Shown: positions 33,801-63,088, numbered from the stretch's first letter. The stretch: 64,000 nt of DNA from Patescibacteria group bacterium (GCA_038065815.1 JBBTQF010000012.1:1663-65662); one strand, 5' to 3'. Program-made: numbers and translations. Notes: generated by a model from the letters alone, not told the origin.

Positions 33801-33979
33801 GGTTTTTTGTATGCCTCTACCTCTACCTCTTTAATTACCCCCGGTATGTCCTCCACAATAATCGTCGTTATCCCCGGCGCCACCGCAAATACCTTCATTG
33901 GTGTCCCAACAAAAAGAAAAGAAAAGGACACGAGCAGTCCCAAAAAAACAAGTTTAATTCGAATCTTGTGAGGCAACAT
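24872..33979 (-). CDS. Giant (about 3035-3050 aa) secreted Cys-, Asp-, Ser/Thr-, Gly-rich surface protein with an N-terminal signal and a presumed extracellular multi-domain body.
   Basis: It is a single uninterrupted 9.1-kb ORF. The signal/TM is MLPHKIRIKLVFLGLLVSFSFLFVG; the listed ORF starts 15 codons earlier at 34024. The body has pervasive Cys with Asp-rich DxDxDG-like calcium-binding-like motifs, for example DGDGVPD and DEDGDGLPD. GC content is genome-like. Confidence 0.7.
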   Translation of the reverse strand: MLPHKIRIKLVFLGLLVSFSFLFVGTPMKVFAVAPGITTIIVEDIPGVIKEVEVEAYKKPFQVAFGMIIWNLLQYSLNRVSYEFAVRLATGAAGGEPLLELRSLEDFSNSIVYDIVGEAIAALSEGANIAGLHFDLCAPSALGRINLQLGLSQVFKPKPRCDFQKALTNWTNAYTGIVNEYNAFDEDPTKYVLGYFADAINPRETELTASMTIYSQVFENVNKKEKVKLAELLAKQGYKDVADFISGNIKTPATVIALESGKKQLYLDPKENAKDYWALLVNNPEIWQNLGLSALSVFANTFVSTFLDNVFTGLYDVTVDSVSDSFDVGSVGTRGGVEGAEDFYKTIYTTTPISLDTYNAVSEFILCPTTNAISLNNCTMDDSFATAVGSADAGSPFTVQEAIEEGYINGDRPLISSSDSRNLDRDCYSYGYCYSNLVKLRKARIIPIGWEIAADLQSSDPDTLQDVVSAFDNCNADGERDTEYPYCHLIDPNWVLKYPSTQCEAQVAGQLVSISGADRQDECVDAPSCIQEDASGACVGGYGYCTQEKNVYQFRGQDCPEQYGTCLSFTSEDGDDSDLLFNTVDESVCDSNNAGCLWYETTKEEDSDGVFDWPTITDVPTDDDAEFTYAERVYFNSEVEDCDSSDAGCRRFVIDDDDTELNLIINPSFEDDDNSDDQPDFWLSTGTPGYDISGDYSISGDSAVNPGSGNFIYQRNISIQASMFYTLSFYAAQPSSSDSNELTVYLVTDSSDGSEEVNLIGTSYDSDNCELVSLDGNAKPESLQMSVTPDSDEYERFTCTFTSPTLDDPTIGVRVASLDFGGDLLVDAVQLEADEDVDNFREGYGSAIDDLQLVYYKLPPSYLGCEGSADDPEECDSYSQMCTAQDAGCLLYTPVNGNPSVPGITGDLDECPSECVGYDTYKQEPTLYEPDGEFPVYFISDTAISCSEQYVGCDEFTNLSDESQEYYTYLRACVTGSQTTNEAVYYTWEGSDLEGFKLQSWNLLKSDLDGAPCTSWETKSDGIYCSDVDADSDGSADTDSACDEHDDIFDEPDCREFYDEGGDISYRRFDDTVSVTDSCIAYRKTEISGVDSSEREISCESARGYFDSTTGNCRFYGYTDESDSCPSSQNGCREYTGGAGRNSSIVYDDDVEDEDIDEYDLDGATAEVSNESVATDGRSIHIVTTIAGGALFTAYIDYGSTCVTEDGCEASDSTLGFECTVEKDEDDCGTLADALAEDKVYVLNFWAKASDNSTSITPKFVYDGGSGTVQAFESVDLSTNWEEFTVGPLDTTDTDFDETAVLAFAGDASGDDFYIDNITLRQTEENITVIRDSWVTPSTCDETADGAESPLYYLGCQEYTDSNGDIADLKSFTRLCSEELVGCAGFFDTQASESAYGVSYNVRCDNADDDGDGVPDQASSSVVCEIEGETVCTITAGSKDCLFDWEGGEPRDEDGNPLAPDDADMSIVFGPETQVVNADEKVYFVANSEFECESSVMGCVETGAPTFSMDQTVVASWESTYLLNQPDEYDDQLCQAEALFCEAWDTTDGSTYFFKNPNDKTCEYKTSVSLNGTSYSGWFRTGTSEFCYGTGTCTVSGADCETDSDCTSSTDEETDECEIDTGTYLSGGTASSIWRNGDSAYDGWGGTCSAQYDFCTEFIDPADTGDELYGQDEGESYFFINDELLDDSNLSTSKQCNGMVSQKRGCVLFNDIVQGELTYNASASYIRSVHAPKFDAGADSYDLVDPLSCPDDGEVVLADGTEVDLCTQRCGYDTALLHPYDNNTGTTYTGSCLIDADCPDVESDGGDLVSGSCESDATALEDDTNMVQKVNLDRACAEWLACDSTRTVWDTSTNSYEISCDSVDACNEYSAFSDSSFCSSWSQDKTPDILTADLYSSRDVGWYGYEYAGYSIPNQIPAQFLSQVNINPSKWCVNGATDEIYEPYEDGSYLSCDTTEGEEECGDIGAAYSCQSAGEDYRLVYYAGACDGTEDGESCSIGFCSDTGSACGSDDECDSSEFCATGYCAYEPSSSVKCVTDVDCSGQTSATSCIDGVCQNLTSTACEGDTLKCSGIGTASCVQSASTQTGACYNDKCLLDPKDDDGSGEAETFEPAEGEELDCRGWPEANAPFGNSVVETWANSALGPKERTDTNTKSSDSAIGIDSEDPTVNSSKAYERKSTFERVTLCVAGEECDCSYDKVSYGSLTRYYDEGAENAASRVCSGGTYDGAVCIDSAVDNTIYNVMDTTCEEAGGSCQFITGQQALVGWQGYCLERDARTQVNGDSNSDACLTWLPLDQLSGASDIYGKYEEAGYPLTNTYYCGESDYYVDVPVSDFSIEETSGTSGIACAEHESSHDCWSLEENDDGDRVFSWKDLLRGDGNAVCPKGDYAVLGRCIYTDADPDTGDTDSAEDGDNYFAECQNDRGATSDYNDHPYICVPGDPEQLGGEDDDDVRDLYNETATRGYVPFHTDKESDYFGEPCYDPQALEDMGILDDIDGGEGVYALKKSDVDYEAGYFSPLSSDGNRVYKMMSGTDEFANLLEYYADCKIMGFDYAAMEAGGTDAIFDVNFDSYFNNCPTWSWTTCPKYWSGLYFDQGVYPACTTLVNVASTEGNRAWTNRLLYETYQISAVDDRFEYTNKTARAPFGAAWSPDELNETDWNDPAPARILSCVVSESGTASYLTEADGTCDSSSYYGFAPYYEDGLGDSSDPEARAYNMYDSAVINLNDFLTGISQIFAKTLTLFSWDKDGGDGTGGYGDGVEISSSNTSSSGSADLSPADHYSDVTATGDSYQDETTPSAPIVRSIGSTCVDDLCQEGSNDSFSINGYDDENLTGTSGQFLADIKFYVEANANQMPIRRMIIDWQDEDDGSDQFGSTSSNNYYKNARGLDEYNEEFCGESPENWGEEADACTSAYYNYSHVYTCTESFVVTLETCDNLDEDGDGLPDSTPCADGTACVYRPRIHVRDNWGWCTGECPDTETNPGNGDSCYGSMEDMDTSSADNECELERPDGNMDFDSFAEDDPWVYYEGVIRVEP

Positions 33980-34607
33980 ACTCGGCAAGGACTTGGTTAT
34001 ACAATTCAATAAGCTCATCATCACTATAGTTCGCCAACATATCAGACGTCACCCCATTTTGTGAGAGCAATTCGCGCAATGACGCTGGATCCATGTTCTC
34101 AATAAGCGCTTGAACGCTAGCTGGGTCGCTTCCGGACTCGATGAGTTGCTGAAGAAAGGCGGAGTTGTCCTCTGGCGCTTCAATCGAGGAGGCAACTTCT
34201 TCACCGATATCAACGGAGATCTCGTTGGTTCTGGAACATTCACTGTCAATCGGACAGTTTGGATCGTTTCCAGAATTGAGCTCCTGCGCATCGTCATAAC
34301 CGTCAGAGTCAGAGTCAGAGAGATACGGCGAGGTGCCGTAGACTTCCTGCTCATCATAATCGTTGAGTCCATCACTGTCCGTATCGCGCACCTTCATTGC
34401 ATTCTTCTCTGCCTCTTCTTGCTGTACAACAAACGATTCGTCATCTGTCAGCGTCAGCTGGAAAGGCAGTGATAAATTTTTTCCAATGTAGCGCGTGCCT
34501 AGTGTGATGCCTCCGATGCCCGCAATGATAAGCAACAACAAAGCCGCCCTTTCTGGACCAGAAAATGGCGAGCGAGGTTCACTCGGAATAACCGGCTGAT
34601 TTTGCAT
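33954..34607 (-). CDS. Membrane-anchored protein with thrombospondin-type-3-like Asp-rich calcium-binding repeats.
   Basis: There is an N-terminal TM (AALLLLIIAGIGGITLG). DTDSDGLNDYDE and SDSDSDGYDDAQE fit DxDxDGxxDxxD. Its 3' end overlaps the giant gene start by about 26-70 nt. Confidence 0.5.
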   Translation of the reverse strand: MQNQPVIPSEPRSPFSGPERAALLLLIIAGIGGITLGTRYIGKNLSLPFQLTLTDDESFVVQQEEAEKNAMKVRDTDSDGLNDYDEQEVYGTSPYLSDSDSDGYDDAQELNSGNDPNCPIDSECSRTNEISVDIGEEVASSIEAPEDNSAFLQQLIESGSDPASVQALIENMDPASLRELLSQNGVTSDMLANYSDDELIELYNQVLAEYVASQDSN

Positions 34608-48907: not shown

Positions 48908-50647
48908 TTACATCTCGCGGACCGATTCAATCCCAAGGACAGAAAGAGCTTTGATGAGCGTCCGATGCGTCGCCTCACACAAAGCGAGACGCGCCTCGCG
49001 CACGGCACCTGTCGCCTTGAGGACAGGAACATCTTGATAAAAATCAGCAAAGGACTTGGCCAGATCAAAGGCATATTGGGCAATCGCCGAAATCTGATAC
49101 GTCCGAACGACACGCTGTAAGACGTCTGGATACTCGGCAATTTTGCGCAAAAGTTCAGCTTCTTTGGTTTTTCCGAAAGGTGTTTCGTGAGCCCCAGACT
49201 TATCCACACCTTTTTTAGCACCCCTCTTACGGAGGATACTCTGAATCCGCGCCATGGTATAGAGCACATAAGGGCCGGTAAATCCATCAAATGCTAACGC
49301 CTGTTTCGTCTCAAAAATGACAATTTTATCGAGGTCCTGTTTGAGAATGTAAAACTTTAGTGCCGCAAAGGCAATGTGATGAGCGATCTCGTCTACTTTT
49401 TTGTCACTCCAGTCTGAATGACGGGCGCGCGTCTCTTGACGCGCCGACTGCATGACCTTATCACGCAAATCTTCGTAGCGAATCACGTTCCCTTTGCGCG
49501 ATGACATAACACCATCTGGCAGAGTGACAATCTCGTAGGAGAGGTGTTGCAATGTGCGGTTGAATCCCATGCGCTTAAGCGTCGCAAACAGTTGCTTCAT
49601 AGCCAACGACTGGCGCACATCAACAACGTATAAACTCAAATCCGCGCGATAGTCTTCTTCTTTTTGAAACGCAAGGGCCAAATCTTTTGCGTTATACAAA
49701 AGCGTTCCGTCAGTGCGCTCAAGCAAATTCACACCAAGCTTTTCTTCTTCAAGAGGCACAATCACGGCGCCATCACTGCGCTTTGCAATTCCTCTACGCA
49801 TTAAATCCTCAACAATAGCCTTTGAGCTTTTCACGAGATCACTTTCAAAATACCACTGCTCAATGGTTAGGCCGAGATCCTTAAACACTCCGCGAATCAT
49901 CGTCATGGACCAGCCGCGCGTTTTCTTCCAAAGCATGCGCCAGCCACGGTGACCATTTTCAAGGCTCTGAAAAATCTTCTGAATATCCACCTTCTCTTCT
50001 GGATTGGCATCGAGCCACTGCGTCGCCTCGGTGTACACCTTGGCGAGAAAAATATTTTCCTCCCCCTTTTCCGGCTTCTCGCCCGGATGAAACTTTTGAA
50101 TACCCCACAAACATTTGGCAACGTGCGCGCCAAGATCATTGATGTAGGACGTCGGAATCACACGCGCTCCATGCGCACGCAACAATTCAACAACCACTTG
50201 ACCGACAAGGGCGTTGCGCAAATGGCCGACGTGTACTTCCTTGTGAGTGTTTGGTTGGGCGTACTCGACCATGATTGTTTTAGCAGTAAGCGTTGAGCTC
50301 GTGCCGTATGTCTCTTGCCTTGCCTCATCAATGACACGCTCTGCAAGCGCTGGTGTGCTCAAACGAAAATTAATGTATGGACCGTTGGCATCCACGGATG
50401 CAATCATCCCTTGCGGTTTGATTTTAGGAGCGATCTCGCTGGTAATCTCAACCGGCGAGCGCTTAAAACCTTTGGCCAAGCCAAAACACGGGAAGGCGAT
50501 GTCCCCGTGACTGGCAATCTTTGGCGCTTCAAGCTCATCAAGCGTGGGAGAATATGTTTTCCCAAGCGCGGTTTTGAGCGCGAGCAATACCTCTTGTCGT
50601 GCTTGTTGAAGGGCGTACATAGGACGATTAAGAGATGAGCCTGACAA
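48908..50647 (-). CDS. argS: Arginyl-tRNA synthetase.
   Basis: The HIGH motif is HVGH and ArgRS N-terminal, catalytic and DALR anticodon-binding regions are present. The length is 579 aa. Confidence 0.9.
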   Translation of the reverse strand: MSGSSLNRPMYALQQARQEVLLALKTALGKTYSPTLDELEAPKIASHGDIAFPCFGLAKGFKRSPVEITSEIAPKIKPQGMIASVDANGPYINFRLSTPALAERVIDEARQETYGTSSTLTAKTIMVEYAQPNTHKEVHVGHLRNALVGQVVVELLRAHGARVIPTSYINDLGAHVAKCLWGIQKFHPGEKPEKGEENIFLAKVYTEATQWLDANPEEKVDIQKIFQSLENGHRGWRMLWKKTRGWSMTMIRGVFKDLGLTIEQWYFESDLVKSSKAIVEDLMRRGIAKRSDGAVIVPLEEEKLGVNLLERTDGTLLYNAKDLALAFQKEEDYRADLSLYVVDVRQSLAMKQLFATLKRMGFNRTLQHLSYEIVTLPDGVMSSRKGNVIRYEDLRDKVMQSARQETRARHSDWSDKKVDEIAHHIAFAALKFYILKQDLDKIVIFETKQALAFDGFTGPYVLYTMARIQSILRKRGAKKGVDKSGAHETPFGKTKEAELLRKIAEYPDVLQRVVRTYQISAIAQYAFDLAKSFADFYQDVPVLKATGAVREARLALCEATHRTLIKALSVLGIESVREM

Positions 50648-51815
50648 AATGACGCTTGCCTTTTTGGATAACGGAACCAGAACGAACCTCGCGTTTTACG
50701 TCTTTGACAACCTTGCCATCCACTTTCACACCGCCTTCCTCAAGCACTCGACGCGCCTCGGACTTCGAGGCAACCAGCTTTGCAAGAACAAGCGCACCAA
50801 CAAGTGACACGGGACCTTTCACGCGCACCTCCCGCATCTCCTCTGGCGCTTCGTGTTCTCGAAACATTTTGTTGAACGCCTCAACCGCTTGATCTGCGAC
50901 CTTTGCGGAATGATACATGCGCACAATCTCACGCGCCAAACGAATTTTAATATCGCGAGGATTTGTACCTGATTTCATCGCTCCTTCCATCTTTGAAATC
51001 TCCGCCATTGGCACACGCGTAAAATATGTAAAATATTTTACAATCAACTCGTCCGAGATTGACATAATTTTTCCAAACATCTCACTAGGCGCGTCAGTAA
51101 AATTAATCGTGTTACCCCAGCTTGAACTCATCTTGCGACCGTCGGTTCCATCAATGAGAGGATTCATGATGATATTTTGAGAATTCTGATGAAAATGCGG
51201 TTGCATTTCGCGTCCAGCCAACAAATTAAAACGTTGATCAGTCCCTCCAAGCTCGACGTCAGCCTTCACCGCAACCGAATCATACCCCTGCATGAGAGGA
51301 TAAAGCACCTCTCGCAGAGACACGCGCGTACCGGCATCTAGACGACGTCGAATATTCTCACGAGCAATAAACTCCGCCAACGAAAAAAAGTCTGCTTGTT
51401 CCGCAACATCAACGTAATTTAATTTTTTTAACCATTCAGAATTGAAACGGATTTCCGCTTTTTTAATATCAAGTATCTTTTCCGCTTGCGTCACGTAATG
51501 CTTTAAATTGATTTTTACCGTTTTCGGATCAAGCATCGGACGTTCAGATTCTTTATCTGATGTGTCCCCAATCACTCCTGTAAAATCTCCAACAATGAAG
51601 ACGACCTTGTGACCGAGCTCTTGAAAATCACGTAGCTTTAGCAAAGGCACGGATCGGCCTAAGTGCAAATTCGGACTTGTCGGATCAATGCCGAGCTTGA
51701 CGCGCAAAACAGCTCCCGAAAGCATCCGCTCTCGTAACTGATTTTTAACAATGACTTCATCAACACCGCGTGACAAAACTTCGTCAATGGCTTTTGGATT
51801 CGTGTTCACTTTCAT
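50628..51815 (-). CDS. tyrS: Tyrosyl-tRNA synthetase (with a C-terminal S4 domain).
   Basis: The class I motifs are LHLGR (HIGH-like) and KMSSS. The C-terminal S4-like RVLEEGGVKVDG stretch is present and the length is 395 aa. Confidence 0.85.
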   Translation of the reverse strand: MKVNTNPKAIDEVLSRGVDEVIVKNQLRERMLSGAVLRVKLGIDPTSPNLHLGRSVPLLKLRDFQELGHKVVFIVGDFTGVIGDTSDKESERPMLDPKTVKINLKHYVTQAEKILDIKKAEIRFNSEWLKKLNYVDVAEQADFFSLAEFIARENIRRRLDAGTRVSLREVLYPLMQGYDSVAVKADVELGGTDQRFNLLAGREMQPHFHQNSQNIIMNPLIDGTDGRKMSSSWGNTINFTDAPSEMFGKIMSISDELIVKYFTYFTRVPMAEISKMEGAMKSGTNPRDIKIRLAREIVRMYHSAKVADQAVEAFNKMFREHEAPEEMREVRVKGPVSLVGALVLAKLVASKSEARRVLEEGGVKVDGKVVKDVKREVRSGSVIQKGKRHFVRLIS

Positions 51816-51833
51816 ACATAAGTTATCTTACCG

Positions 51834-54602
51834 CTATTTCTTGAGCACGGCGAGTTGAGACTGTAGGGCGCGAGATCGCTCATGTGCCTCGCTCAAATTC
51901 GTCCGCATTTTTTTAACAACATTCGCTGGAGCTTTTGATGTGAACTCCGCGTTGTCGAGTTTCGCAGAGAGTGTGCTGGCATAGTCTTGAGCTCCTTGAA
52001 GCTCCTTCGTGAGACGCATCCTTTCTTTTTCAAGATCAAGCAGACCGGCGAGTGAGAGAAAGATAGAGGCCTCGCCGAGCACGGCCGAAGCGCTCTGCAC
52101 AGGAGCGGTGCCGTTCGCTGTCACTGTGAGACTCCCCACGCGCGCCAGATGCTTGATGAGCTCGGCTTGTTCATCAATAAATGTCGCACGTTTTCCACTG
52201 ACAATGGTAACACTAACCATCTTCGCAGGCTCCACGTTATACTGCGAACGCAAATTGCGAATAGCCCCGACCACATCTTGCACCAGAGTAAACTCACCAG
52301 CCACGCGTGGATCCATGTTCCCTCCGGATTTAGGCCACTCCGCAATCATCAAGAAATCTTTCGACAGCCCCATCTCTTTCCAAATCACCTCCGTCACAAA
52401 GGGCATGAACGGATGCCAGAGTTTGAGCAAAGTCGACAAGACGTGCAATAAAACGCGATCAGTGTTTTCCGACTTCTGCAACTTGGAGATCTCCAAATAC
52501 CAATCTGCAAACTCGCTCCATGTAAAGTCTCGCAACAGCTCACCGGCGGCCGAGAACTCATAGCGCTCAAGGTGCGCCGTGACCCGATCGGTGACCTCGG
52601 CGAGGCGACCGAGTATCCATCGGTCGGCAAGGGTCACCGCACAGACCCCACCCCAACCCTCCCCTTGGGTAAGGGGAGGGAGATGAGCACTCGAGAGAAC
52701 AAACCGCGCAATGTTCCAAAGTTTATTTGTAAAGTTGCGATAACCGGCAATTTTTTCTTCCGAAAGTTTTGAGTCATTCCCCGGCGTCCCACCAATAACA
52801 AGCGACAGACGCGTCGCATCCGCGCCAAACTTACCAATCATGTCCAATGGATCAATAATGTTGTCGAGCGACTTACTCATCTTGCGCCCCTTTTCATCGC
52901 GAACGAGGCCATGCAAATAGACCTGCTTAAATGGAATCTCCCCAACCGCATACGTTGTCATCAAAATCATGCGCGCCACCCAGAAAAACAAAATATCGTA
53001 GCCTGTCTCGAGAACCGAAGTCGGATGAAATTGCTCAAAATCACTAGGCTTGCCCTCCGAAGCCTTGGCGGAGGAGGGCCACCCAAGCGTCGAGATCGTC
53101 CACAACCCCGAGCTAAACCACGTGTCGAGCGTGTCCGGGTCCTGCTCCCACCCATCTCCCTCTAGCGCTTCTACACTCACAGAAATTTCCTCCCCGCGAT
53201 ACCACACCGGCACGCGATGGCCAAACCAAATCTGACGACTGATGTTCCAATCACGCAAATTATCAATCCAGTGAAAATACGTTTTCTCAAATCGCTCCGG
53301 AATAATCTCAATCTGCTTTGAGCGCACGACGTGTTGCATGATCTCCTTCAGCGAGATCATCTGCCCATCATTGATTCCATCAATCGGCGCGTGCGAGCTC
53401 GCACGAAAGGCAAACGGTTTGTTGACGTCAATAAACCATTGCAACTTTGGCAGTGGCTCAACCGGTGATTCACACCGGTAGCAGACAGAGAGATTATGCG
53501 TGTAATTCTCGTCAACGTGATCCACGAGACCCTTCTTCTGCAACTGCTCGACGATTGCCGTGCGTGCATCATGCGCGTCCTGTCCGGCAAATGAACCTGC
53601 CGCATTGGTGAGCTTCCCATCCTCACCAATAATTTGGACAACCTCGAATCCATATTTCTTCGCAAGATCAAAATCAACAAAACTGTGTGCAGGAGTGATC
53701 GTCATGGCACCAGAACCCATATCCATATCCGCAACTTCATCAGCAACTACTTTTGCTTTCACCAATCCATCAATCCACTCAACCTCCATCTCTTTTCCAA
53801 CAAGCTCTTTGTACCGCGCATCATTCGGATGAACAACTATTACCTTGTCAGCGAATTTAGTTTCAGGACGCGCGGTCCCAATCACAACTGGACCATATTT
53901 GAAATAATAAAACTTCGTCTTCTGCTCAATGTATTCCACTTCGTCGTCCGCGAGTGTGGATTTGCATCTCGGACACCAATTCACCATCCTGTCACCGCGA
54001 TAGATGAGACCGTCGTCATACATCATCTTAAACGCCGTGCGCACGGCAGTAGAACGAGCCGAATCAAGTGTGTACGCCTCACGCGACCAATCAAGTGACG
54101 CTCCCATCTTCTTACACTGTTTAACAATGACATCGTGCGACTCGGTCGCAAACGTTTTCACGCGCTCCAAAAACGCTCCGCGTCCAAGCTCTGCTCGAGG
54201 GTCCTTCATACCACCCGCAATGAGAAGTTTCTCAACTTTTGTCTGCGTGGCAATGGCCGCGTGATCTGTCCCTGGAAGCCAAAGCGTTTTCTTGCCACGC
54301 ATGCGGGCAAAACGAACCATAATATCCTCGATCGCCAGCATCACCGCGTGTCCCATGTGCAGGGTGCCAGTCACGTTGGGTGGTGGCAAAACAATAGAAA
54401 ACATCTCTTTGCGCTCATCTGGCAAGTTGTCCGGATTAAAAAACCCGCTCTGCTCCCATGCGGCGTAGACGGCGTCTTCGTGCGCCTTTGGATCGTAGGC
54501 TTTGGGAATCTCGTGATCGGCCATAATGGGATAAGTGTACGGAAATAAAGGGTATTTGGCAATTAGAGATCTTCGTTTAAAATTTTCGTTGTAGATGTCC
54601 AA
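51834..54602 (-). CDS. valS: Valyl-tRNA synthetase.
   Basis: The HIGH motif is PNVTGTLHMGHA, KMSKS is present, and there is a C-terminal coiled coil. The length is 922 aa. The start is possibly the internal MADHEIPKAYDP at about 54524. Confidence 0.9.
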   Translation of the reverse strand: MDIYNENFKRRSLIAKYPLFPYTYPIMADHEIPKAYDPKAHEDAVYAAWEQSGFFNPDNLPDERKEMFSIVLPPPNVTGTLHMGHAVMLAIEDIMVRFARMRGKKTLWLPGTDHAAIATQTKVEKLLIAGGMKDPRAELGRGAFLERVKTFATESHDVIVKQCKKMGASLDWSREAYTLDSARSTAVRTAFKMMYDDGLIYRGDRMVNWCPRCKSTLADDEVEYIEQKTKFYYFKYGPVVIGTARPETKFADKVIVVHPNDARYKELVGKEMEVEWIDGLVKAKVVADEVADMDMGSGAMTITPAHSFVDFDLAKKYGFEVVQIIGEDGKLTNAAGSFAGQDAHDARTAIVEQLQKKGLVDHVDENYTHNLSVCYRCESPVEPLPKLQWFIDVNKPFAFRASSHAPIDGINDGQMISLKEIMQHVVRSKQIEIIPERFEKTYFHWIDNLRDWNISRQIWFGHRVPVWYRGEEISVSVEALEGDGWEQDPDTLDTWFSSGLWTISTLGWPSSAKASEGKPSDFEQFHPTSVLETGYDILFFWVARMILMTTYAVGEIPFKQVYLHGLVRDEKGRKMSKSLDNIIDPLDMIGKFGADATRLSLVIGGTPGNDSKLSEEKIAGYRNFTNKLWNIARFVLSSAHLPPLTQGEGWGGVCAVTLADRWILGRLAEVTDRVTAHLERYEFSAAGELLRDFTWSEFADWYLEISKLQKSENTDRVLLHVLSTLLKLWHPFMPFVTEVIWKEMGLSKDFLMIAEWPKSGGNMDPRVAGEFTLVQDVVGAIRNLRSQYNVEPAKMVSVTIVSGKRATFIDEQAELIKHLARVGSLTVTANGTAPVQSASAVLGEASIFLSLAGLLDLEKERMRLTKELQGAQDYASTLSAKLDNAEFTSKAPANVVKKMRTNLSEAHERSRALQSQLAVLKK

Positions 54603-54650
54603 AAACGAAACGCCGCTCTGGTGGACCCAGAGCGGACGCTGTAAAAGGAG

Positions 54651-56204
54651 CTATTCACGGTTGCAACGGGCGAATGCCGAATCACAGACGATTACGACCG
54701 GCTTGTCTTTGACCTCGATCTGCCTGATCACTGTGACTGGATCGGGCGTATCCTGAAACGTTGCAGTAACGCGATAGAAACCTGGAGGAATGCTAGTCGG
54801 AAGTGTGAATGACCCGTTGTCTCCGATCAGACGAACCTGCGTGGCGTCGCCCCTCACTGTCGCGCGAGTCTCAAGTTGTTCAACGGCCACGGATGGCTGG
54901 ACAGCCTTGACACGTGGCTCTACTTTCGTCGCTTTCGTTTTCGGGTCGTTCTTGCCAACCACCTTACCCCTATCCTTCTCACTGGAAAGACCGATGACTG
55001 ACGTGACTGGTTCATCAACTGGTGAAGCGGTAGGTTCAGCGACCGACTCGATCCTCGAAGAAGTGATGGCTTCTGGATACGCTTGCCATGCTTGTACAGG
55101 AGGAGACCTAGGATCACGCATCCAGAAGCCATACACTAAGAGAGAGATAACAAGGGTCACGGTGCCAACAATGGCGATCATGCCACCGTGTGGCAAGCGT
55201 TCCCTGCGTGGCTCGACCGCAACACTCACGACGACAGGAGGTGCAACTTCATGTTCAGAACTCACTTGTCCGTCAGCATTAGAAGATGACGAACTGAAGT
55301 CAAACCGTGTTCCAATAACTTCACCCTCGATTTCAGGAACCATGGTGTGAAATGAAACACGCCGTGTCTCACTTTCTTCACTGACCGTTGGCAGTTGGTT
55401 CAAAACGCTTTCGATGGCCTCAATCATCTCCATAGCACTCGCATACCGATTCTGTGGCTGATGCGCCGTCGCCTTGCAAATGATCGGACGCAGTACGTCA
55501 GGGATAGGATCCATGATGTCCGGGTCTTCATGGAGTGTCGAGTAGAAAAATGGCGCGGTTGGCTTGACGATCCCAGCGATCAGTGCATGAAGCATCACAC
55601 CAGTCGCGTACAGATCCGCCCGCAAGTCTGTACGAACAGAGCTCCAGTGTTGCTCCGGTGCCATGTACCAGAACGTACCGATTATGCCCCCTGTCTGTGT
55701 GAAACCGTGACTCTCACCACTCGCGCGAGCGATCCCGAAATCACAAATCTTCGGAACCCCATCAGCGCCGAGCAGGACGTTGTCTGGCTTCACATCACGA
55801 TGCACGATTCCATTGTTGTGTGCACACTCGAGGCCACGTAGGACGTCCATCACGATACTCGCGGCTTCCCTACTCGGAATATACGCCTTTCGACGTTGAA
55901 GATCGCGCAGAGAACCGCCAGACACGAAGTCCATGATGATGTAAATCTGTCCTTCATGCTCGTCTAGGTCATGTACAGCTACGATGTTGCCGTGTTGTGC
56001 ACGCTCCATCGCGACGGCTTCTTTCTTAAGACGTTGACGCAACGCCTCTTTCCCACTCATTTGCCACTTGAGAACCTTCAAGGCGTACTGACGCCCGAGA
56101 CTCGTATGCTCAACAAGATAGACATACGCCATGCCTCCCTCGCCGAGCAATCTAATGATGCGATATCGTCGTGCGAACAGATCGCCAGACTTCAGCTGTA
56201 ACAT
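54651..56204 (-). CDS. Hanks-type Ser/Thr protein kinase with a single TM and an extracellular C-terminal domain.
   Basis: LGEGGMAYVY...ALKVL, HRDVKPDNVLL and DFGIA are present. A TM helix (MIAIVGTVTLVISLLVYGFW) follows. The probable start is MLQLKSG at 56204, overlapping the upstream stop as TAATG; the listed ORF extends to 56441. Confidence 0.8.
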   Translation of the reverse strand: MLQLKSGDLFARRYRIIRLLGEGGMAYVYLVEHTSLGRQYALKVLKWQMSGKEALRQRLKKEAVAMERAQHGNIVAVHDLDEHEGQIYIIMDFVSGGSLRDLQRRKAYIPSREAASIVMDVLRGLECAHNNGIVHRDVKPDNVLLGADGVPKICDFGIARASGESHGFTQTGGIIGTFWYMAPEQHWSSVRTDLRADLYATGVMLHALIAGIVKPTAPFFYSTLHEDPDIMDPIPDVLRPIICKATAHQPQNRYASAMEMIEAIESVLNQLPTVSEESETRRVSFHTMVPEIEGEVIGTRFDFSSSSSNADGQVSSEHEVAPPVVVSVAVEPRRERLPHGGMIAIVGTVTLVISLLVYGFWMRDPRSPPVQAWQAYPEAITSSRIESVAEPTASPVDEPVTSVIGLSSEKDRGKVVGKNDPKTKATKVEPRVKAVQPSVAVEQLETRATVRGDATQVRLIGDNGSFTLPTSIPPGFYRVTATFQDTPDPVTVIRQIEVKDKPVVIVCDSAFARCNRE

Positions 56205-57115
56205 TAGCGTCCACCTTTGTGGTTGGGAATTACCACGGTGAATGTGATGATGCCGAGCGTAGCCGTGAGCGCAGAACTTGCGACCCACGCCACACCGAGC
56301 GTGTTCGTCGTATCCCGCAGTGCAGAAAGCTCGTCGTCGGAAATAGGATTTTCGGTATTCTCGAAACGTTCTTTCTCGATCATACCCACAGTGTACAACC
56401 CGCCAGAGATCAACAGGCTCGTACCGGTCGCGATGAGCCACGGCGTCGGAGAGCCCTGGAAGATCCCCCTGGGCACAGGGACGACTAGCTCCATGTTGTA
56501 CGCCGTCAGATCGAACTTCGGCAGTAGATCAAGCGGACGCACGAATGAAGACTCGACAACGACACCGTGCGCATTCATGATCTGAATGATCGCGCTCGCG
56601 CTCGACAGCCGTGTGTCAGTGCGTACGCCGTCAACCGTTGCCCAACCGCCGATCGGTGCGAGCACGACCTGAAGTTCGCCTGACAGCTCTACGACTTTCG
56701 CCTTTTCGTACAGCCGTGCGACAGGATGATCTGCCGGCACGATCCCTTCCGGGAACTCGTAGTGAGGTTCGAGCTTGTTGCTCACATGGAATTCGCTCTG
56801 CACGAGATCACGATCCCTTGCGACGAAAGCGACAAGTGCGAGCAAGCGGTGGAACCGAGCCGCATCGCTCATGGCGATCTGCTCATTGAGGCAGTTGATC
56901 TGACCGATCGCCGTGTCACGAGATGACGCGATCCCATCACGATCCATCTGAACGAAGGCGGTCTCGCCCGCCGTGATAGTGGCGAGCAGATCAGTAACCG
57001 CAACGGCCTGTGGACAGGTCTCCTCGGCAGGCGGAGCCGTTGGCTCATCAGCCTGCGCAGGTTGCGGAAGACCCAGCAAAAAAAGGACTGAAAGAATACG
57101 TGGCATGTGGTACAA
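56204..57115 (-). CDS. Secreted or membrane-anchored protein of 303 aa (signal peptide, extracellular domain, C-terminal TM), translationally coupled to the kinase.
   Basis: The signal peptide is MPRILSVLFLLGLPQPAQA, the C-terminal TM is TLGIITFTVVI, and the stop/start overlap with the kinase gene reads TAATG. Confidence 0.45.
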   Translation of the reverse strand: MYHMPRILSVLFLLGLPQPAQADEPTAPPAEETCPQAVAVTDLLATITAGETAFVQMDRDGIASSRDTAIGQINCLNEQIAMSDAARFHRLLALVAFVARDRDLVQSEFHVSNKLEPHYEFPEGIVPADHPVARLYEKAKVVELSGELQVVLAPIGGWATVDGVRTDTRLSSASAIIQIMNAHGVVVESSFVRPLDLLPKFDLTAYNMELVVPVPRGIFQGSPTPWLIATGTSLLISGGLYTVGMIEKERFENTENPISDDELSALRDTTNTLGVAWVASSALTATLGIITFTVVIPNHKGGR

Positions 57116-57219
57116 GCCTCCATCGCAATCTCACCATTTTTTTCCGTCAGAGTCAATCGGTTCAGCCGACCCAATTGACAAAACCCTCAAAAAAAGGGAA
57201 AAAGGAGGTGAGGTGACCA

Positions 57220-59406
57220 ATGACCGCTACTTCCCTCTTGCTCCTTACACTTTCGGGTTGTGAGTTTCTGCCTTTCATTAGCGATGCGGGCTTCACAGAT
57301 CGCTTTGACCTGGACCGAGATGGTGCCCCGCGACCTGACGACTGCGACGACCAAGACGCGGCTGTGAGCCCGAGCGCGGATGAAATCTGCGACGGCACAG
57401 ACAACGATTGCGACGGAGACGTTGATGAAAACGACTCCGTTGACGCTACGTCATGGTACGCGGACAGCGACAGCGACGGCTACGGGTTCGGGGTCGCCAT
57501 CGTACAATGCGACGACATCGCTGGCTACGCGACAACCGATGGCGACTGCGACGATCAAGACGCGGACATCAATCCAGACGCGTCCGAAGTCTGCGACGAG
57601 ACCGACAATGACTGCGACGATGAGGCAGACAACGATCCGATTGATGGGACGCTCTGGTACCCCGATGCTGACGATGACTCATTCGGAGATGCGTCGGGAG
57701 TTGTGAATGTCTGTACGCAACCTGACGGCTACGTGAGTGACGCGACAGACTGTGACGATCAGAATCCGGCCGTGAACCCAAACGCGATCGAACTCTGTGA
57801 AGACGAGGTTGACAACAACTGCAATGGTGAGACGGATGAAGACGCATCCTACACCACGCAGTACGCCGATGCTGACGACGACGAGTACGGCGATGTGAAC
57901 AATCAAGTCGTTGCCTGTAACATCATCGATGGCTATGTGAGCGATGCGACGGATTGCGATGACAACGACGCGAATGTGAACCCAGGCGTGACCGAAGTCT
58001 GCAACAACGGTGTTGATGACAACTGCGATGGAGGCGCAGGTGACTGCGTGTTCGAAGGCGAAATCGTCGCTTCAGACGCGATCGCTATTCTCGCTGGAGA
58101 GTCGTCAGAAGATAGGGCTGGCGTAAGCGTGGCGGGTGTTGGCGATATAGACGGTGATGGATATGACGACGTGCTGGTCGGTGCGAACATGAACGATCGT
58201 GCTGCACAACAAGCCGGAATCGTCTACCTCGTCCGCGGACCGATCACTATGGAGAGTAACCTTTCCGACGCATACGCAACCTTCATCGGAGTTTCAACAA
58301 ATGACTACTCTGGCACTAGCGTTGCAAGCGCTGGTGATCTAAACAACGACGGATATACGGACTTCATCATCGGCGCACCATCCAGCTCCCTCAATGGGAG
58401 TCAATCAGGCGCTGTTTACATAGTCAATGGGCCAGTGAGTGGAACTCAAAGTCTAAGCGATGCCGATCGTATACTTACTGGTCATGCGGAGTCCGATTTT
58501 ACTGGCTATAGCATTGCCGGTATTGGAGACCTGAACAGCGACGGCTACGATGATGTACTCATCGGTGCCTATATGGGCGATACTACCGCAACGGACGCAG
58601 GCGTGATCTACGTTGACTTTGGGCCTGGTGCGACCGTGACGGAAGATCTAACAACATCTGGCGGACTCATCCTCAACGGCGAGCAAGCAAGCGACTTGGC
58701 CGGCATCAGTGTCGCAAGCGCCGGGGATATCAACACCGACGGCGTACCCGACATCCTAGTCGGGGCAAGTAGTAACGATTACGCAGGATCTGGAGCCGGA
58801 GCGGCCTATCTGCTCTACGGTCCGCGATCAGGTGGAATAACCATCTCGCTCGCTGATGCAGATATGAAACTCACAGGAGAAGATGCTGGTGATTCATTCG
58901 GCCGCGCGACGAGCGGTGCTGGAGACATAAACAATGATGGCTACGACGACTTCCTTGTTGGTGCTCCAAATGAAAGTAGTGCTGGTGATAGTTTTGGTGC
59001 CGCGTACCTAATAGTGAACGCCACATACGGTACAGAAAATATCGCAACAAACGGACAAAAATTCATCGGTGAAAATGGTGGAGATTTAGCAGGAACGAGT
59101 CTCTCTGGCGCAGGTGACATCGACCTGGACGGCAATGATGATCTGCTCATCGGTGCTTATGGAAGTGATGGGTACGGTCTAGACGTAGGCACGGTCTACT
59201 GCATCTTTGGACCTGTTACTGCCGTCAGTAATCAACTTTCAAGCAGTAGAACAATCATGTACGGAGAAGCCGTGAGTGACTATTTCGGCGTTGGGATAGC
59301 TCCTGCAGGCGACACGAACGCGGACGGCTTCACTGACATCATCATTGGCGCTCACTATAACGATAACACCGGCTCCGCCTACATCTTCAGCTGGCTCGAA
59401 CTCTAG
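57220..59406 (+). CDS. Surface lipoprotein with about six Cys/Asp-rich metal-binding-like repeats followed by an FG-GAP (integrin-alpha-like) beta-propeller.
   Basis: The lipobox is LLLTLSGC. The repeats follow CDDQDAxxxPxAxExCDGxDNDCDGxxDE, and the FG-GAP-like units follow GDxNxDGYDDxLxGA. Confidence 0.65.
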   Translation: MTATSLLLLTLSGCEFLPFISDAGFTDRFDLDRDGAPRPDDCDDQDAAVSPSADEICDGTDNDCDGDVDENDSVDATSWYADSDSDGYGFGVAIVQCDDIAGYATTDGDCDDQDADINPDASEVCDETDNDCDDEADNDPIDGTLWYPDADDDSFGDASGVVNVCTQPDGYVSDATDCDDQNPAVNPNAIELCEDEVDNNCNGETDEDASYTTQYADADDDEYGDVNNQVVACNIIDGYVSDATDCDDNDANVNPGVTEVCNNGVDDNCDGGAGDCVFEGEIVASDAIAILAGESSEDRAGVSVAGVGDIDGDGYDDVLVGANMNDRAAQQAGIVYLVRGPITMESNLSDAYATFIGVSTNDYSGTSVASAGDLNNDGYTDFIIGAPSSSLNGSQSGAVYIVNGPVSGTQSLSDADRILTGHAESDFTGYSIAGIGDLNSDGYDDVLIGAYMGDTTATDAGVIYVDFGPGATVTEDLTTSGGLILNGEQASDLAGISVASAGDINTDGVPDILVGASSNDYAGSGAGAAYLLYGPRSGGITISLADADMKLTGEDAGDSFGRATSGAGDINNDGYDDFLVGAPNESSAGDSFGAAYLIVNATYGTENIATNGQKFIGENGGDLAGTSLSGAGDIDLDGNDDLLIGAYGSDGYGLDVGTVYCIFGPVTAVSNQLSSSRTIMYGEAVSDYFGVGIAPAGDTNADGFTDIIIGAHYNDNTGSAYIFSWLEL

Positions 59407-59422
59407 CAAGACAAAACAACTG

Positions 59423-59445
59423 GCCCTCGTCGTACGGACGGGGGC
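59423..59445 (+). terminator. Hairpin GCCCTCGTC-gtacg-GACGGGGGC downstream of the FG-GAP gene. It is a terminator candidate that abuts the next start codon.
   Basis: It has a 9-bp stem with one G-T pair and is followed by TTGATGATTTTAATC. Confidence 0.35.
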
Positions 59446-59448
59446 TTG

Positions 59449-60609
59449 ATGATTTTAATCGCAACGTGTACACTCCCATATTCCATTATGTCGCTTACAG
59501 AAACCGCGCAAATCCAACAGATCATCACGCGAAGCCAACATCCGTTGGTCGTTGTTGCAAAACACGGAGGGATTGACGCGTTTGCCTCTGCGATTGGCAT
59601 GAAATTTGCGCTCGCAAAGATGAACAAGCCTGTAACTGTTGTGAGTTCCGCACCAGTCCCAAAGGCACTCGGTCGCATTGTGATCGGCGATCATGTACGA
59701 TCCGATCTCCCAAACATGCGAACGCTCGTCGTTGAACTAGACACGAGAGCGGTGCAAGCGACAGAAATCAAAAGGGAGGATGCGGACGGCCGCATCCGTT
59801 TTTTATTCACGCCAAATGTTGGAACGTGGAGCGAACAGGATATCAATGTCTCAACATCACCGTATCCGTATGACCTTGTAATATGCATTGGAGCAAGTGA
59901 TCTTGCGGGATGCGGAGAGATTCATACTGCCCATGCAGATTTTTTGTACCGCACACCTATCATTAATATTGATCACTCAACAACAAACGAACATTTTGGT
60001 CAGATGAACATCGTTGATTTGACAGCGACCTCTTGCGCGGAAGTTTGTCATAATTTGGTGAATGAGCTGTACTCGGAAATTATGGACGAGGAAATTGCAA
60101 CTCTTTTTTTAACAGGGATGATTGCAAAGACGAAGAGTTTTAAGGCGCGCAATGTCACACCAAAAACCTTAAACACTGTGAGCGCGCTGATCGAGAAAGG
60201 AGCGCGACGAGAAGAGATAATTACAAACCTTTATCGCGTACGTTCTGTCTCGACATTACGTCTCTGGGGCCGTGCGCTTGCTAGATTGAAGCATAATGTA
60301 GAATGCAATTTAGTCTGGACGCTTTTGTCTCAACAAGATTTTTTGCACGCTGGAGCTCAAGATGATGACCTGCTTGAGGTCGTTGATGAACTCATCTTTT
60401 CATCACCAGATGCAGAGATGGCCTTACTGCTATATGAAGATCATGATCGCAATATCAGATGCATTCTGCGCGTAAATCCTCCACATCACGCCACTCAACT
60501 TTTGAAATCTTTTTCTCCTTCAGGCACACACGAAGAGGCTCATGTCCGTCTGCAGAACATGAGCCTCGTGGAAGCTGAACGAATAATCCTTGACGCGTTT
60601 ACTCAGTGA
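59449..60609 (+). CDS. DHH/DHHA1-family phosphoesterase (NrnA-like nanoRNase / pAp phosphatase).
   Basis: It has the DHH-family layout with a C-terminal DHHA1-like region. The listed ORF starts at TTG 59446, and ATG 59449 is preferred. Confidence 0.6.
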   Translation: MILIATCTLPYSIMSLTETAQIQQIITRSQHPLVVVAKHGGIDAFASAIGMKFALAKMNKPVTVVSSAPVPKALGRIVIGDHVRSDLPNMRTLVVELDTRAVQATEIKREDADGRIRFLFTPNVGTWSEQDINVSTSPYPYDLVICIGASDLAGCGEIHTAHADFLYRTPIINIDHSTTNEHFGQMNIVDLTATSCAEVCHNLVNELYSEIMDEEIATLFLTGMIAKTKSFKARNVTPKTLNTVSALIEKGARREEIITNLYRVRSVSTLRLWGRALARLKHNVECNLVWTLLSQQDFLHAGAQDDDLLEVVDELIFSSPDAEMALLLYEDHDRNIRCILRVNPPHHATQLLKSFSPSGTHEEAHVRLQNMSLVEAERIILDAFTQ

Positions 60610-63088
60610 CCTCTTCATCAACCGTAACTTCCCCATCCTCCACTTCCGTTGCGGACTCCTCTCCTTCCTCAACTGGAGGCGGAATCGTTGTGGTGGATTG
60701 TCCTGACTTTAGGCGAGAGAGTCGCTCGATAACGAACTCATTTTCTGGGTTCAGATCAGCGACTTTTTGAATCTGTTCAATGGCGGCTGTGGAGTTTCCA
60801 CTGATCTCATACATGGAAGCAAGGTACCAACGAGCATTGGAGTAGTTTGAATTTAACCCGACCAAACGCTCCAGTTCCGCCTGCGCCAAGCTGTATTTCT
60901 GTTGACGGATGTACAACTGGGAAAGCTGAAAACCGATGCCAATGTCGAGTGGGGCGTAATCGCGTAGAGCGACCATGCGAGCAACTGCGTCATCAAGACG
61001 GCCTTGTCGCTCAAATACTGCCGCAAGATAATAGTGAGCTGGCGCGTAATTTTGTTTATAAATGATTGCTTTGTTAAACGCCTCTTCTGCAAGTGTAAGA
61101 TATTTCTTCTCCGACTCAACGGCTTGAGTCGCAAGCTCGGCATTTTCAGAACTCTTCAAGTCACTCGCGCGATCAGCTGTAACAAGATAGATACGTCCAA
61201 GGTCTGTATAGTGCTTTGGATTCGTTGGCTCCAATTCTCCTGCGCGGATAAAGGAAGCCGCGGCCAGATCTTCAGCTCCATTCACAAGTGGCATGAGTTC
61301 TCGATAGACCATCCCTCGCACAGACCAGTTATCAACGTTATATGGCTCGAGTGCGGTTGTTCGTGCCGCCGCATTGATGCTTGCGTTAACAAGAGCTTGA
61401 ATGAGCTGTGTCTGTTCCGGTGTTGCAGGAACGCCTGTCGCATTGATCTCCTGATAGACGTCTCGCACGCGCAGAAGAAGCGCGGAGCTCAAGTTTCGAT
61501 AGTAGACATCGCTCAACTGATTAAATGATGTCGCGGTCGCCAGTTTATTTACCACCTCCTCTGCAGAGGCTCCACTCCTATCCATGCGAACAGCTTGAGC
61601 AAATGCGACTTCTGAAGCATAGCGCTGACCTGTCACAAAGAGTCCACCAACAACGGCAACGGCCACAAGGATAAATCCAAATGATGTTGCAAGGCCAAGT
61701 TTTGGAGAACGTCCGAAATCTGTCTCCTTTACACGAACCATCACCTGACTTGCGATCAAACCAGAGAAGAGCCAGAACAAGAAGCTCAATGTCATGTTTG
61801 ATGTGTACAAAAATTGCAAAAGTAGAATGGTAGCCCACGCACAAAAGACGACATACGTCACACGCCACTCTTCATGATCTCGCTCACGCAACAAGCGACT
61901 CAAGGCCATAAGGGCGACCCAAGCGACAAAGGCAAGCCATCCAACTAACCCAAGAACGCCCATGGTCGTGAGAATTGTCAACGCATGCGACTTGGCACGG
62001 TCAAAATTCGTATTCCAGAAATCTGTCTGGCTCACGGCAGTGTCCTTAAACTCTGCGTAATCAAATGCGTACGTACCCGGACCAGAACCGACCAAGATCG
62101 AACCGATATTGCGCCCAAGAGTTTCTTTTGCAATAGAAAGACTCGCTCCAAACGACGGAGATACGACCGCTGGAAAATCCCAACGCAATGGCGATGGAAC
62201 GAACAGAAACAGAACACTCACAACCAACAAGAACAATGGGAGCGAGAAACGCGTTGTCCCCGGGAAATCTTTTTGTTGGATGAAAGCGAAAGCTGAAAGA
62301 AGAAGGATACCGAAGATCGTCACAATCCACATCACCCAATAATCTATCGCCACAAGCGCAAGGATCGTCAGAATAACCTGAACGATCATAAGGATGCGCA
62401 TCGTCTTGCCCCTACCACCATCTGGCATGATCGCGTCCTTCCCCGGACGGGTAACCAACCAGAGACCGAGACCAAGAATCATGACAACGACCATGTATGC
62501 AACAAAGCTGTTCATCGTGCCAACAAGGTTGAATCCACTAAACTTCGCGAATGAAAACGGTAGGATTCCGATCCCAATGAAACTCAAGATTGTGATGATG
62601 CCAGAGAGAACGGATGAAAGGACGGTTGCGAAAAAGAGATTACGTTGGGTAGATGTCTCGCTCATCGTATTCATGACAACGAAGAACAATACGAGGAACG
62701 TGGTAAGCGTCAAGAAGCTGGTATATTCCTGTGATGCTTGTCCAACCCATGATTGATAGCCAGACAGCGAAAGAATCGAAGAGGCCAGAACTATCAAAAA
62801 CCAGACACCTGGTACGACGTTTAACCAACCAGTACGAAACGACAACCTCTTCTCAATCACCATTGCGCCAAGCCATGCGACCAAACCTACTAACGTGAGC
62901 AGTACAAGCACTGTCTGTTTATTTATCTCTAGGTAGTTGGACGTGAATGGCAAAAAGAAGACCGGCAACAGAAATGTAAGCAAATACAGCGACCAACGAG
63001 TGATCACTTGATACATTCCGACATTCGTAAACGGCACTTTTCTCCTCCGTTGGGCCACACCGAGCCCGGAACTTGTAAGTGGTTCCAT
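60599..63088 (-). CDS. Large membrane protein: an O-antigen-ligase-like polytopic domain plus C-terminal TPR repeats.
   Basis: Among the 829 aa, more than 12 TM helices occupy the N-terminal 480 aa. TPR-like repeats follow (YYLAAVFERQGRLDDAVARMVALRDYAP...). Confidence 0.55.
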   Translation of the reverse strand: MEPLTSSGLGVAQRRRKVPFTNVGMYQVITRWSLYLLTFLLPVFFLPFTSNYLEINKQTVLVLLTLVGLVAWLGAMVIEKRLSFRTGWLNVVPGVWFLIVLASSILSLSGYQSWVGQASQEYTSFLTLTTFLVLFFVVMNTMSETSTQRNLFFATVLSSVLSGIITILSFIGIGILPFSFAKFSGFNLVGTMNSFVAYMVVVMILGLGLWLVTRPGKDAIMPDGGRGKTMRILMIVQVILTILALVAIDYWVMWIVTIFGILLLSAFAFIQQKDFPGTTRFSLPLFLLVVSVLFLFVPSPLRWDFPAVVSPSFGASLSIAKETLGRNIGSILVGSGPGTYAFDYAEFKDTAVSQTDFWNTNFDRAKSHALTILTTMGVLGLVGWLAFVAWVALMALSRLLRERDHEEWRVTYVVFCAWATILLLQFLYTSNMTLSFLFWLFSGLIASQVMVRVKETDFGRSPKLGLATSFGFILVAVAVVGGLFVTGQRYASEVAFAQAVRMDRSGASAEEVVNKLATATSFNQLSDVYYRNLSSALLLRVRDVYQEINATGVPATPEQTQLIQALVNASINAAARTTALEPYNVDNWSVRGMVYRELMPLVNGAEDLAAASFIRAGELEPTNPKHYTDLGRIYLVTADRASDLKSSENAELATQAVESEKKYLTLAEEAFNKAIIYKQNYAPAHYYLAAVFERQGRLDDAVARMVALRDYAPLDIGIGFQLSQLYIRQQKYSLAQAELERLVGLNSNYSNARWYLASMYEISGNSTAAIEQIQKVADLNPENEFVIERLSRLKSGQSTTTIPPPVEEGEESATEVEDGEVTVDEEVTE

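Follow-up and report, generated by a model that had tools for sequence, protein, structure and literature searches.

Which signal does a membrane-spanning Ser/Thr kinase read when its gene starts on the last base of the stop codon of a gene for a secreted membrane protein, and when the gene for a large surface lipoprotein diverges from that pair? The question is raised by a stretch of 64,000 nucleotides from a Patescibacteria group bacterium (GCA_038065815.1 JBBTQF010000012.1:1663-65662), called the window hereafter, where the genes for a secreted membrane protein (A), a Hanks-type kinase (K) and a lipoprotein (L) lie side by side. To our knowledge, an input is known for only a minority of the bacterial receptor kinases of Hanks type, and the trio gives a concrete, testable input hypothesis for one subtype of them. 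The three genes are linked well beyond the close relatives of the window; that their products work together is what we infer, and on balance we lean towards reading A, K and L as three parts of a conserved envelope receptor-kinase module. The trio is probably a real cell-surface sensing module, so far undescribed: full-text literature searches returned no paper linking these components or describing either the trio or the A family. The elements on which the argument turns are the following.

54651..56204, minus strand: kinase K, a 517-aa Hanks-type Ser/Thr kinase (Pkinase match and motifs)
56204..57106, minus strand: gene A, a 300-aa secreted membrane protein (open reading frame and translation)
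57220..59406, plus strand: lipoprotein L, 728 aa (Pfam matches, lipobox)
56202..56206, minus strand: TAATG stop/start overlap of A and K, with shared base 56204 (read in the sequence)
57107..57219, no strand assigned: divergent A/L intergenic region, 113 nt (read in the sequence)

The stop codon of gene A (TAA, 56206..56204) and the start codon of K (ATG, 56204..56202) overlap by 1 nt, just as a first-pass annotation of this DNA had described, and a GGTGG Shine-Dalgarno-like motif stands 7 nt 5' of the K start, within gene A. The same annotation gave the upstream protein 303 aa, which is correct for the longest open reading frame (ORF), from a TTG at 57115, but the ATG at 57106, 10 nt 3' of a GGAGG, gives 300 aa, and the public database form (P0001) is the same. 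At K the longest ORF is 596 aa from a GTG; this is an extension only, the true K gene encoding 517 aa. An overlap of A and K, or a gap of ≤1 nt, is found in 8 further loci; the 1-nt overlap is also annotated in L001 and L005, and in L089, L091, L092, L094, L097, L100 and L102 the genes overlap by 4–11 nt or are 0–1 nt apart. We conclude that the overlapping genes of A and K are translated together, and that their pairing is conserved across a very large A family. The lipoprotein was correctly given 728 aa and the opposite strand; its gene, however, does not lie 3' of the kinase but 5' of A, from which it diverges across the 113-nt gap.

Recurrence of the trio in distant and close relatives

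Evidence for a link between all three genes comes from ten distant A-family loci, in which A is 23–36% identical to its counterpart in the window. GC content is 66–73% in 6 of the 9 that have DNA, and two loci are Uhrbacteria-like. Their gene orders are as follows.

L089: A, then K, then a MopE protein (1561 aa)
L091: A, then K (2.2-kb contig)
L092: MopE+FG-GAP protein (692 aa), then A, K and a second kinase
L094: A, then K
L095: LamG protein, then A, then two MopE+PKD proteins; no kinase
L097: A, then K, then the gene for seryl-tRNA synthetase (SerRS)
L099: A, then a MopE+FG-GAP protein (666 aa), then K
L100: A, then K
L102: MopE/PKD/beta-helix protein (1476 aa), a histidine kinase, then A and K
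P0022 locus: FG-GAP+MopE protein (563 aa), then A, then a convergent K

A Pkinase gene stands no more than two genes from A in 9/10 of these loci and directly adjoins it in 8/10, usually with a 1–11 nt overlap. A lipobox-bearing MopE-repeat protein is encoded within the same distance in 6/10, three of them having the MopE + FG-GAP architecture; two of the four loci without such a protein are contigs of under 4.5 kb. Both kinds of gene are concentrated around A: within two genes of it they make up 10/36 (Pkinase) and 7/36 (MopE), vs 0/45 farther away in the same loci for either (Fisher p = 0.00014 and p = 0.0024, respectively). Four gene orders occur (L-A-K, A-L-K, A-K-L, and L-A followed by a convergent K), and this permutation argues for functional selection and not for inherited synteny. 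In an all-against-all BLAST of the ORFs, the only genes common to the distant loci were A, K and that of the MopE protein. A lipoprotein with MopE repeats, in many cases with an FG-GAP propeller as its last part, is a recurrent neighbour of A-K. The expectation that the three genes co-occur elsewhere is thus borne out at this distance (kinase 9/10, MopE 6/10), and is ambiguous among close relatives within the candidate phyla radiation (CPR).

In the closest of these relatives (L001-L004, A 54% identical) the order is a TPR gene, a DHH gene, L, A, K and then the genes for valyl-, tyrosyl- and arginyl-tRNA synthetase (ValRS, TyrRS and ArgRS); the L001 region is syntenic throughout, so that retention of the trio there proves nothing. 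The TPR, DHH and L genes of L009, L010 and L013 are directly divergent from that of ValRS, without A or K, and in more distant ABY1-type genomes the DHH gene directly adjoins the ValRS gene. Judged from close relatives alone, L and A-K would look like independent insertions at one site, and a first reading made from them, in which the lipoprotein was merely syntenic and A-K a later insertion, was overturned by the distant loci. As to L009, L010 and L013, two histories are conceivable: gain of the whole trio at the DHH|ValRS junction, followed by loss or relocation of A-K, or a later arrival of A-K beside a cognate lipoprotein. Since other Uhrbacteria (L097, L100) have A-K beside the SerRS gene, these three genomes may hold A-K elsewhere.

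Several observations weigh against a module of three parts. It is separable, as L009, L010 and L013 illustrate; A accompanies MopE proteins in L095 with no kinase within 8 kb; A-K is found without a MopE protein in the available sequence of L094 and L100, the L094 contig ending just after the kinase; and the context sample is small (12 loci, picked partly for the length of available sequence). A, moreover, has only a short cytoplasmic loop, in which no more than 55% of family members keep Thr267. The first and third of these points, together with a report of Cys-rich FG-GAP proteins in CPR genomes (Peribacteria) that mentions a link neither to a kinase nor to the A family (PMC4736985), would suit a rival explanation in which only A and K are a functional pair, while L is an independent surface adhesin brought next to them by local synteny or chance. 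We regard this as rather unlikely, because a MopE lipoprotein stands close to A in six of the ten distant loci, in four orders, and never farther away, and because the partner lipoproteins have an N-terminal motif in common. The three-part module remains our preferred reading.

A few neighbours of these genes are worth recording. A 222-aa ORF (L013 9229-9897) lies between the lipoprotein gene and that of ValRS, where the window has A-K, and a PaaX_M-domain gene is found 5' of the A-K pair of L100. FGE-sulfatase domains recur near high-GC A-K loci (L092 10768-12948, L094 1323-2303, L102 12704-13510), one being fused to the second kinase directly after K in L092.

Domains of L, A and K outside the cell

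The bulk of A, the tail of K and all of L are extracytoplasmic. Their relevant parts map to the window as listed here.

57343..58047, plus strand: four MopE repeats of L, aa 42-276 (four PF11617 stretches, regular expression, Cys positions)
58072..59403, plus strand: seven FG-GAP blades of L, aa ~285-728 (Pfam, motif scan, integrin similarity)
56219..56446, minus strand: part of gene A for the transmembrane (TM) hairpin and cytoplasmic loop, aa 221-296 (prediction and alignment)
54654..54863, minus strand: C-terminal outside domain of K, aa 448-517 (alignment of partner kinases)

The N-terminus of L, MTATSLLLLTLSGC, carries a lipobox (L-S-G-C14) after a hydrophobic region. About six Cys-rich repeats had been proposed; we find four, each with 4 Cys and starting at C42, C110, C178 and C246, that is, with a 68-aa period. 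Their resemblance to myxobacterial putative metal-binding motifs, noticed early, proved sound, as four stretches match Cu-binding_MopE (PF11617) above threshold (7.2e-34, 116.1 bits vs 27). So did the proposal that they lead into a predicted FG-GAP propeller: PF01839 matches seven stretches (1.3e-47) with a blade period of ~64 aa, and all seven blades have the Ca-loop motif D-x-[DN]-x-D-G-x-x-D (starts at aa 309, 373, 437, 503, 569, 633 and 698). Among solved structures, the blades are closest to the Ca-binding blades of integrin alphaV, alpha6 and alphaIIb (E~1e-15).

A common N-terminal layout links L to the MopE proteins of other loci. A lipobox is present in 7/7 of those read (L001, L009, L089, L092, L095, L099, L102), and a D-x-D-G-D-G-type motif follows the lipid-modified Cys by 10–20 residues, just before the first repeat, in 6/7 (not L095); L of the window shares both. 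An equivalent N-terminal Cys occurs in all examined L orthologues and partner MopE proteins, its lipobox being mostly canonical, though not in L013 (V-Q-C). The C-terminal ends of the partner proteins vary, comprising FG-GAP propellers, PKD domains or a beta-helix. Neither Lgt nor LspA was found among the scanned ORFs of the 64-kb window.

The name of the matched Pfam family invites the idea that the module senses or handles metal, the MopE repeats binding copper or another metal and the kinase reporting metal status. The four strong PF11617 matches and the very acidic character of L, with its many DxDxDG loops, agree with this. The name Cu-binding_MopE, however, rests on resemblance, the even spacing of the four Cys in each repeat suggests structural disulfides, DxDxDG loops are where propellers of the integrin type bind Ca, and no gene for a metal transporter or metallochaperone was found nearby among the scanned ORFs of the window. 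A metal-sensing role is improbable in our view, and we continue to read L as the surface- or ligand-binding part of a receptor-kinase module.

Protein A was expected to be extracytoplasmic and anchored by its C-terminus. A signal peptide (aa 1-19, …PAQA|DE) and an outside domain of ~200 aa are indeed predicted, but in place of a single anchor, topology prediction and AlphaFold2 give the C-terminus two TM helices (aa 221-249 and 257-296), joined into a hairpin by a short turn on the cytoplasmic side. The AlphaFold2 model built on a 125-sequence alignment has a mean predicted local distance difference test (pLDDT) of 90.6; with 5 close homologues the pLDDT was 41 and the model unusable. It comprises helices at 37-112 and 128-136 (a putative TPR-like domain, ~37-136), a small beta-sandwich (145-189) and the TM hairpin. 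Foldseek aligns the N-terminal domain with designed and natural TPRs in partial matches (probability 0.9-0.99, target TM-score up to 0.65, ~100 residues aligned, but E >= 0.3). TPR sequence profiles do not match A of the window, and just 1/125 family members matches TPR_2 (0.0068). Pfam and NCBIfam scans gave no match for A and none meaningful among the 125 members, and a sequence search of the PDB gave none for the family.

The size of the family emerged when 1.84 billion cluster representatives (clusters at 50% identity) were searched with a profile of five close sequences: 1666 clusters at E<=1e-3 and 968 at E <= 1e-10, nearly all of them full-length at 260–300 aa. A word-indexed homologue search had returned 5–8 relatives, because Ala-rich words swamp the candidate list. 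A profile search of genome contigs with the A alignment found nothing, a metagenome scan found a single 1.7-kb locus, and tblastn of plasmids with one family member gave no match. Most members are rich in Ala, Gly, Arg and Pro, a composition typical of high-GC genomes; 24/168 sampled members have a low-GC type of composition, and in a rough neighbour-joining tree these are spread over two clades or more. The A family is thus large, without a published model and undescribed in the literature searched.

Conserved positions (window numbering) are C31 (97%), C72 (99%), H86, R87, P114, P151, D159, G160, R166, Q175 and N268. C31 and C72, both nearly invariant, are in keeping with a domain that lies outside the cytoplasm and probably has a disulfide bond. 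A lipobox at the conserved Cys after the signal peptide was ruled out, the context being AxA-x-C and signal-peptidase-I-like. The best-conserved residues all lie in the ectodomain, apart from N268 in the cytoplasmic loop, which is conserved in 85% of members; within the close clade 'TFTVVIPNH' is invariant.

Could the main role of A be that of a substrate or membrane scaffold, phosphorylated by K on this loop, and not that of a sensor partner? The loop, 'LRDTTNTLG', offers three membrane-proximal Thr, at the site of the kinase domain. Thr267 was considered as a conserved phospho-acceptor and then downgraded, since this position is Thr in only 55% of members (Ala in 21%, Asn in 12%), and it is in the ectodomain that conservation is concentrated. 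We give this explanation little credence and prefer A as a partner of K within the sensing module.

Kinase K matches Pkinase PF00069 (8.7e-45, 153.6 bits vs a cut-off of 31.7), and its catalytic motifs are intact in translation (GEGGMA, YALKV, KKEAVAME, HRDVKPDN, DFG, MAPE). It is an RD kinase with a Thr-containing, PknB-like TQT activation loop, closest among solved structures to StkP (2e-43) and PknB (4e-41). The catalytic domain (aa ~13-275) is followed by one TM segment (aa ~337-363), a Pro/Ala/charged linker and, at the C-terminus, a beta domain of ~70 aa that closes with C-x6-C; with 154 residues predicted outside after the single TM segment, the extracellular C-terminal domain claimed for the kinase at the outset is confirmed. 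The consensus of this domain is V..GDA..V.L.G..G.F.LP..VP.G.Y.V.A.F…V.V.C…F..C, both Cys being invariant, and 8/9 examined kinases adjoining A-family genes share the layout and the Cys-pair domain (~65–70 aa). It has no significant Pfam match, with weak beta-sandwich similarity alone (CarboxypepD_reg, E~0.035). Homology to the beta-sandwich of A was rejected (hhalign probability below 1%). The PASTA kinase model NF033483 (PknB_PASTA_kin) scores 262.8 against a cut-off of 450, covering residues 8-381 only, and no Pfam match to PASTA repeats was found in K; hence K is not a PASTA kinase. Kinases adjoining A constitute a Hanks subtype of their own, with a characteristic outside C-terminal beta domain.

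PADLOC models for PD-T4-6 (up to 1.5e-73) and mad6 and the NCBIfam model antiphage_MADS6 (3e-41) match K and might suggest a kinase of anti-phage defence (PD-T4-6 or MADS). We hold this to be highly improbable: these matches cover mainly the generic kinase domain, MADS6 reaches 141.7, far under its cut-off of 460, PADLOC matches neither A nor L, K has a TM segment and an outside domain, and the neighbours are housekeeping aminoacyl-tRNA synthetase genes and no defence island.

Genomic setting

An identical A protein, deposited as hypothetical, is present on Hainich groundwater contigs, ValRS of the window shares 66% identity with its counterpart in a Candidatus Uhrbacteria metagenome-assembled genome, and the best 80 ValRS loci are nearly all from CPR. 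Judged by these similarities, the window belongs to a groundwater Patescibacteria (CPR) genome near Candidatus Uhrbacteria. Its gene content agrees, comprising elsewhere a TraG/VirB4-like ATPase, an M23 peptidase, a Glycos_transf_3-family protein, a 3050-aa surface protein, an IS200-like element and housekeeping genes. Two terminator-like hairpins flank the trio.

54613..54635, minus strand: terminator-like hairpin between the K stop and the ValRS gene (9 bp stem, 7 GC pairs, T-rich tail)
59422..59446, plus strand: terminator-like hairpin 3' of the gene for lipoprotein L (pattern match)

The ValRS, TyrRS and ArgRS genes follow K on its own strand, and the hairpin between K and ValRS suggests that A and K are a two-gene unit of their own. 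The number of terminator-like sites in the region does not exceed the shuffled expectation, so that it is the position of the hairpin alone that is suggestive. Between A and L, a palindrome at 57152-57179 has 12-nt arms (GTCAATCGGTTC / GACCCAATTGAC), which we read as back-to-back -35-like TTGAC boxes of putative promoters or, conceivably, as an operator for a shared regulator; promoter, terminator and operator are all readings of pattern matches. The half-sites are retained in L001, with an IS200-like element inserted between them.

An IS200-like element is also found in the window (23038-23940), with a Y1 transposase of 285 aa and 27-nt inverted repeats (GATGGGGTCAGGCCTG…). Its 60%-identical copy in L001 (7533-8438), with similar ends, lies exactly between the L gene and gene A, so that the insertion splits the intergenic palindrome there.

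CPR-type A-K pairs adjoin aminoacyl-tRNA synthetase genes, these being SerRS in L097 (321-4253) and L100 (8001-13424), and ValRS-TyrRS-ArgRS in the window (48908-57106) and L001. Within one syntenic block (window 48908-54602 vs L001 11121-16815) identities are discordant: 81% for ArgRS, 78% for DHH, 58% for ValRS and 46% for TyrRS, the TyrRS of the window being closer to that of Uhrbacteria UBA9568 (L014, 65%). Such discordance suggests in-place foreign replacement of TyrRS, and perhaps of ValRS.

On the other side of the lipoprotein gene, an 829-aa protein (60599-63088, minus strand) with ~12 predicted TM segments, C-terminal TPR repeats and no catalytic Pfam match accompanies the DHH-like gene and the lipoprotein in L001, L009, L010 and L013 as well, and could be a glycosyltransferase-like envelope enzyme. 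The giant protein of 3050 aa (24872-34024, minus strand) has a weak CBM_4_9 hit as its sole Pfam match, and in the Uhrbacteria locus L100 (L100 1-5004) a similar protein of 3384 aa is encoded at a distance of ~3 kb from A-K.

A putative contact-sensing mechanism and known systems

CPR cells have no outer membrane and live as episymbionts. In such a cell A, K and L would each expose domains at the outer surface of the cytoplasmic membrane, and we infer that they form one envelope complex or exchange signals within it. L, an integrin-alpha-like propeller with Ca-loops held out on disulfide-rich repeats, would be the ligand- or surface-binding element. A could act as a co-receptor, its TPR-like and beta-sandwich ectodomain contacting L and/or the small ectodomain of K and its TM hairpin packing against the single TM helix of K. 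Engagement may then alter oligomerisation of K and autophosphorylation of its activation loop, after which K would phosphorylate cytoplasmic targets. The input in an episymbiotic CPR bacterium would likely be contact with a host-cell or matrix surface, and sensing of host-surface contact is an attractive candidate role. That a Patescibacteria lineage with a reduced genome has kept the module, among aminoacyl-tRNA synthetase genes, suggests that it is of use in a surface-attached, host-dependent lifestyle, and makes the trio a candidate for how such cells sense contact.

A broader picture, which we offer tentatively and hold to be possible though doubtful, is that of a widespread undescribed 'outside-in' adhesion-signalling system, in which a Ca-dependent propeller lipoprotein binds a partner surface, A relays the event via its TM hairpin and the Hanks subtype receives it. 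Such a system would have passed between lineages of high GC content, probably myxobacteria-like, and CPR episymbionts of reduced genome, and in these episymbionts it would report host attachment.

Parts of the trio have likenesses in known systems. L resembles Myxococcus-type Cys-rich repeat proteins in its PF11617 repeats and integrin alpha in its seven FG-GAP blades with Ca-loops, but unlike integrin alpha it has no integrin beta partner and neither a TM segment nor a cytoplasmic tail, being lipid-anchored. An analysis of bacterial integrin-type propellers mentions no link to a kinase or to the A family (PMC3192720).

With PknB, StkP and PrkC, K shares the layout of an N-terminal cytoplasmic kinase domain, a juxtamembrane linker, a single TM segment and an extracellular sensor part. 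It differs from them in having, instead of PASTA repeats, a low-complexity linker and a ~70-aa beta domain with a terminal Cys pair, and in that its gene overlaps that of a dedicated membrane partner, A. The concept of such a partner is itself familiar: in YycH/YycI-WalK, LpqB-MtrB and LiaF-LiaS, membrane proteins or lipoproteins encoded beside sensor histidine kinases control them via TM or ectodomain contacts. Those kinases are, however, of the histidine type and the partners unrelated, A having no sequence or whole-fold match to YycH/YycI, LpqB or LiaF. In Mycobacterium tuberculosis PknD, a Hanks kinase is fused to an extracellular 6-blade NHL-type beta-propeller. The trio likewise combines a Hanks kinase and an extracellular beta-propeller at the cell surface, but its propeller is of the 7-blade FG-GAP (integrin alpha) type and is carried by a separate lipoprotein, and A has no counterpart in PknD. 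Within the known framework of receptor Ser/Thr kinase signalling, the new parts are therefore an undescribed protein family and an undescribed kinase ectodomain, and both the A family (>1600 clusters) and the C-terminal domain of K could be defined as new domain families.

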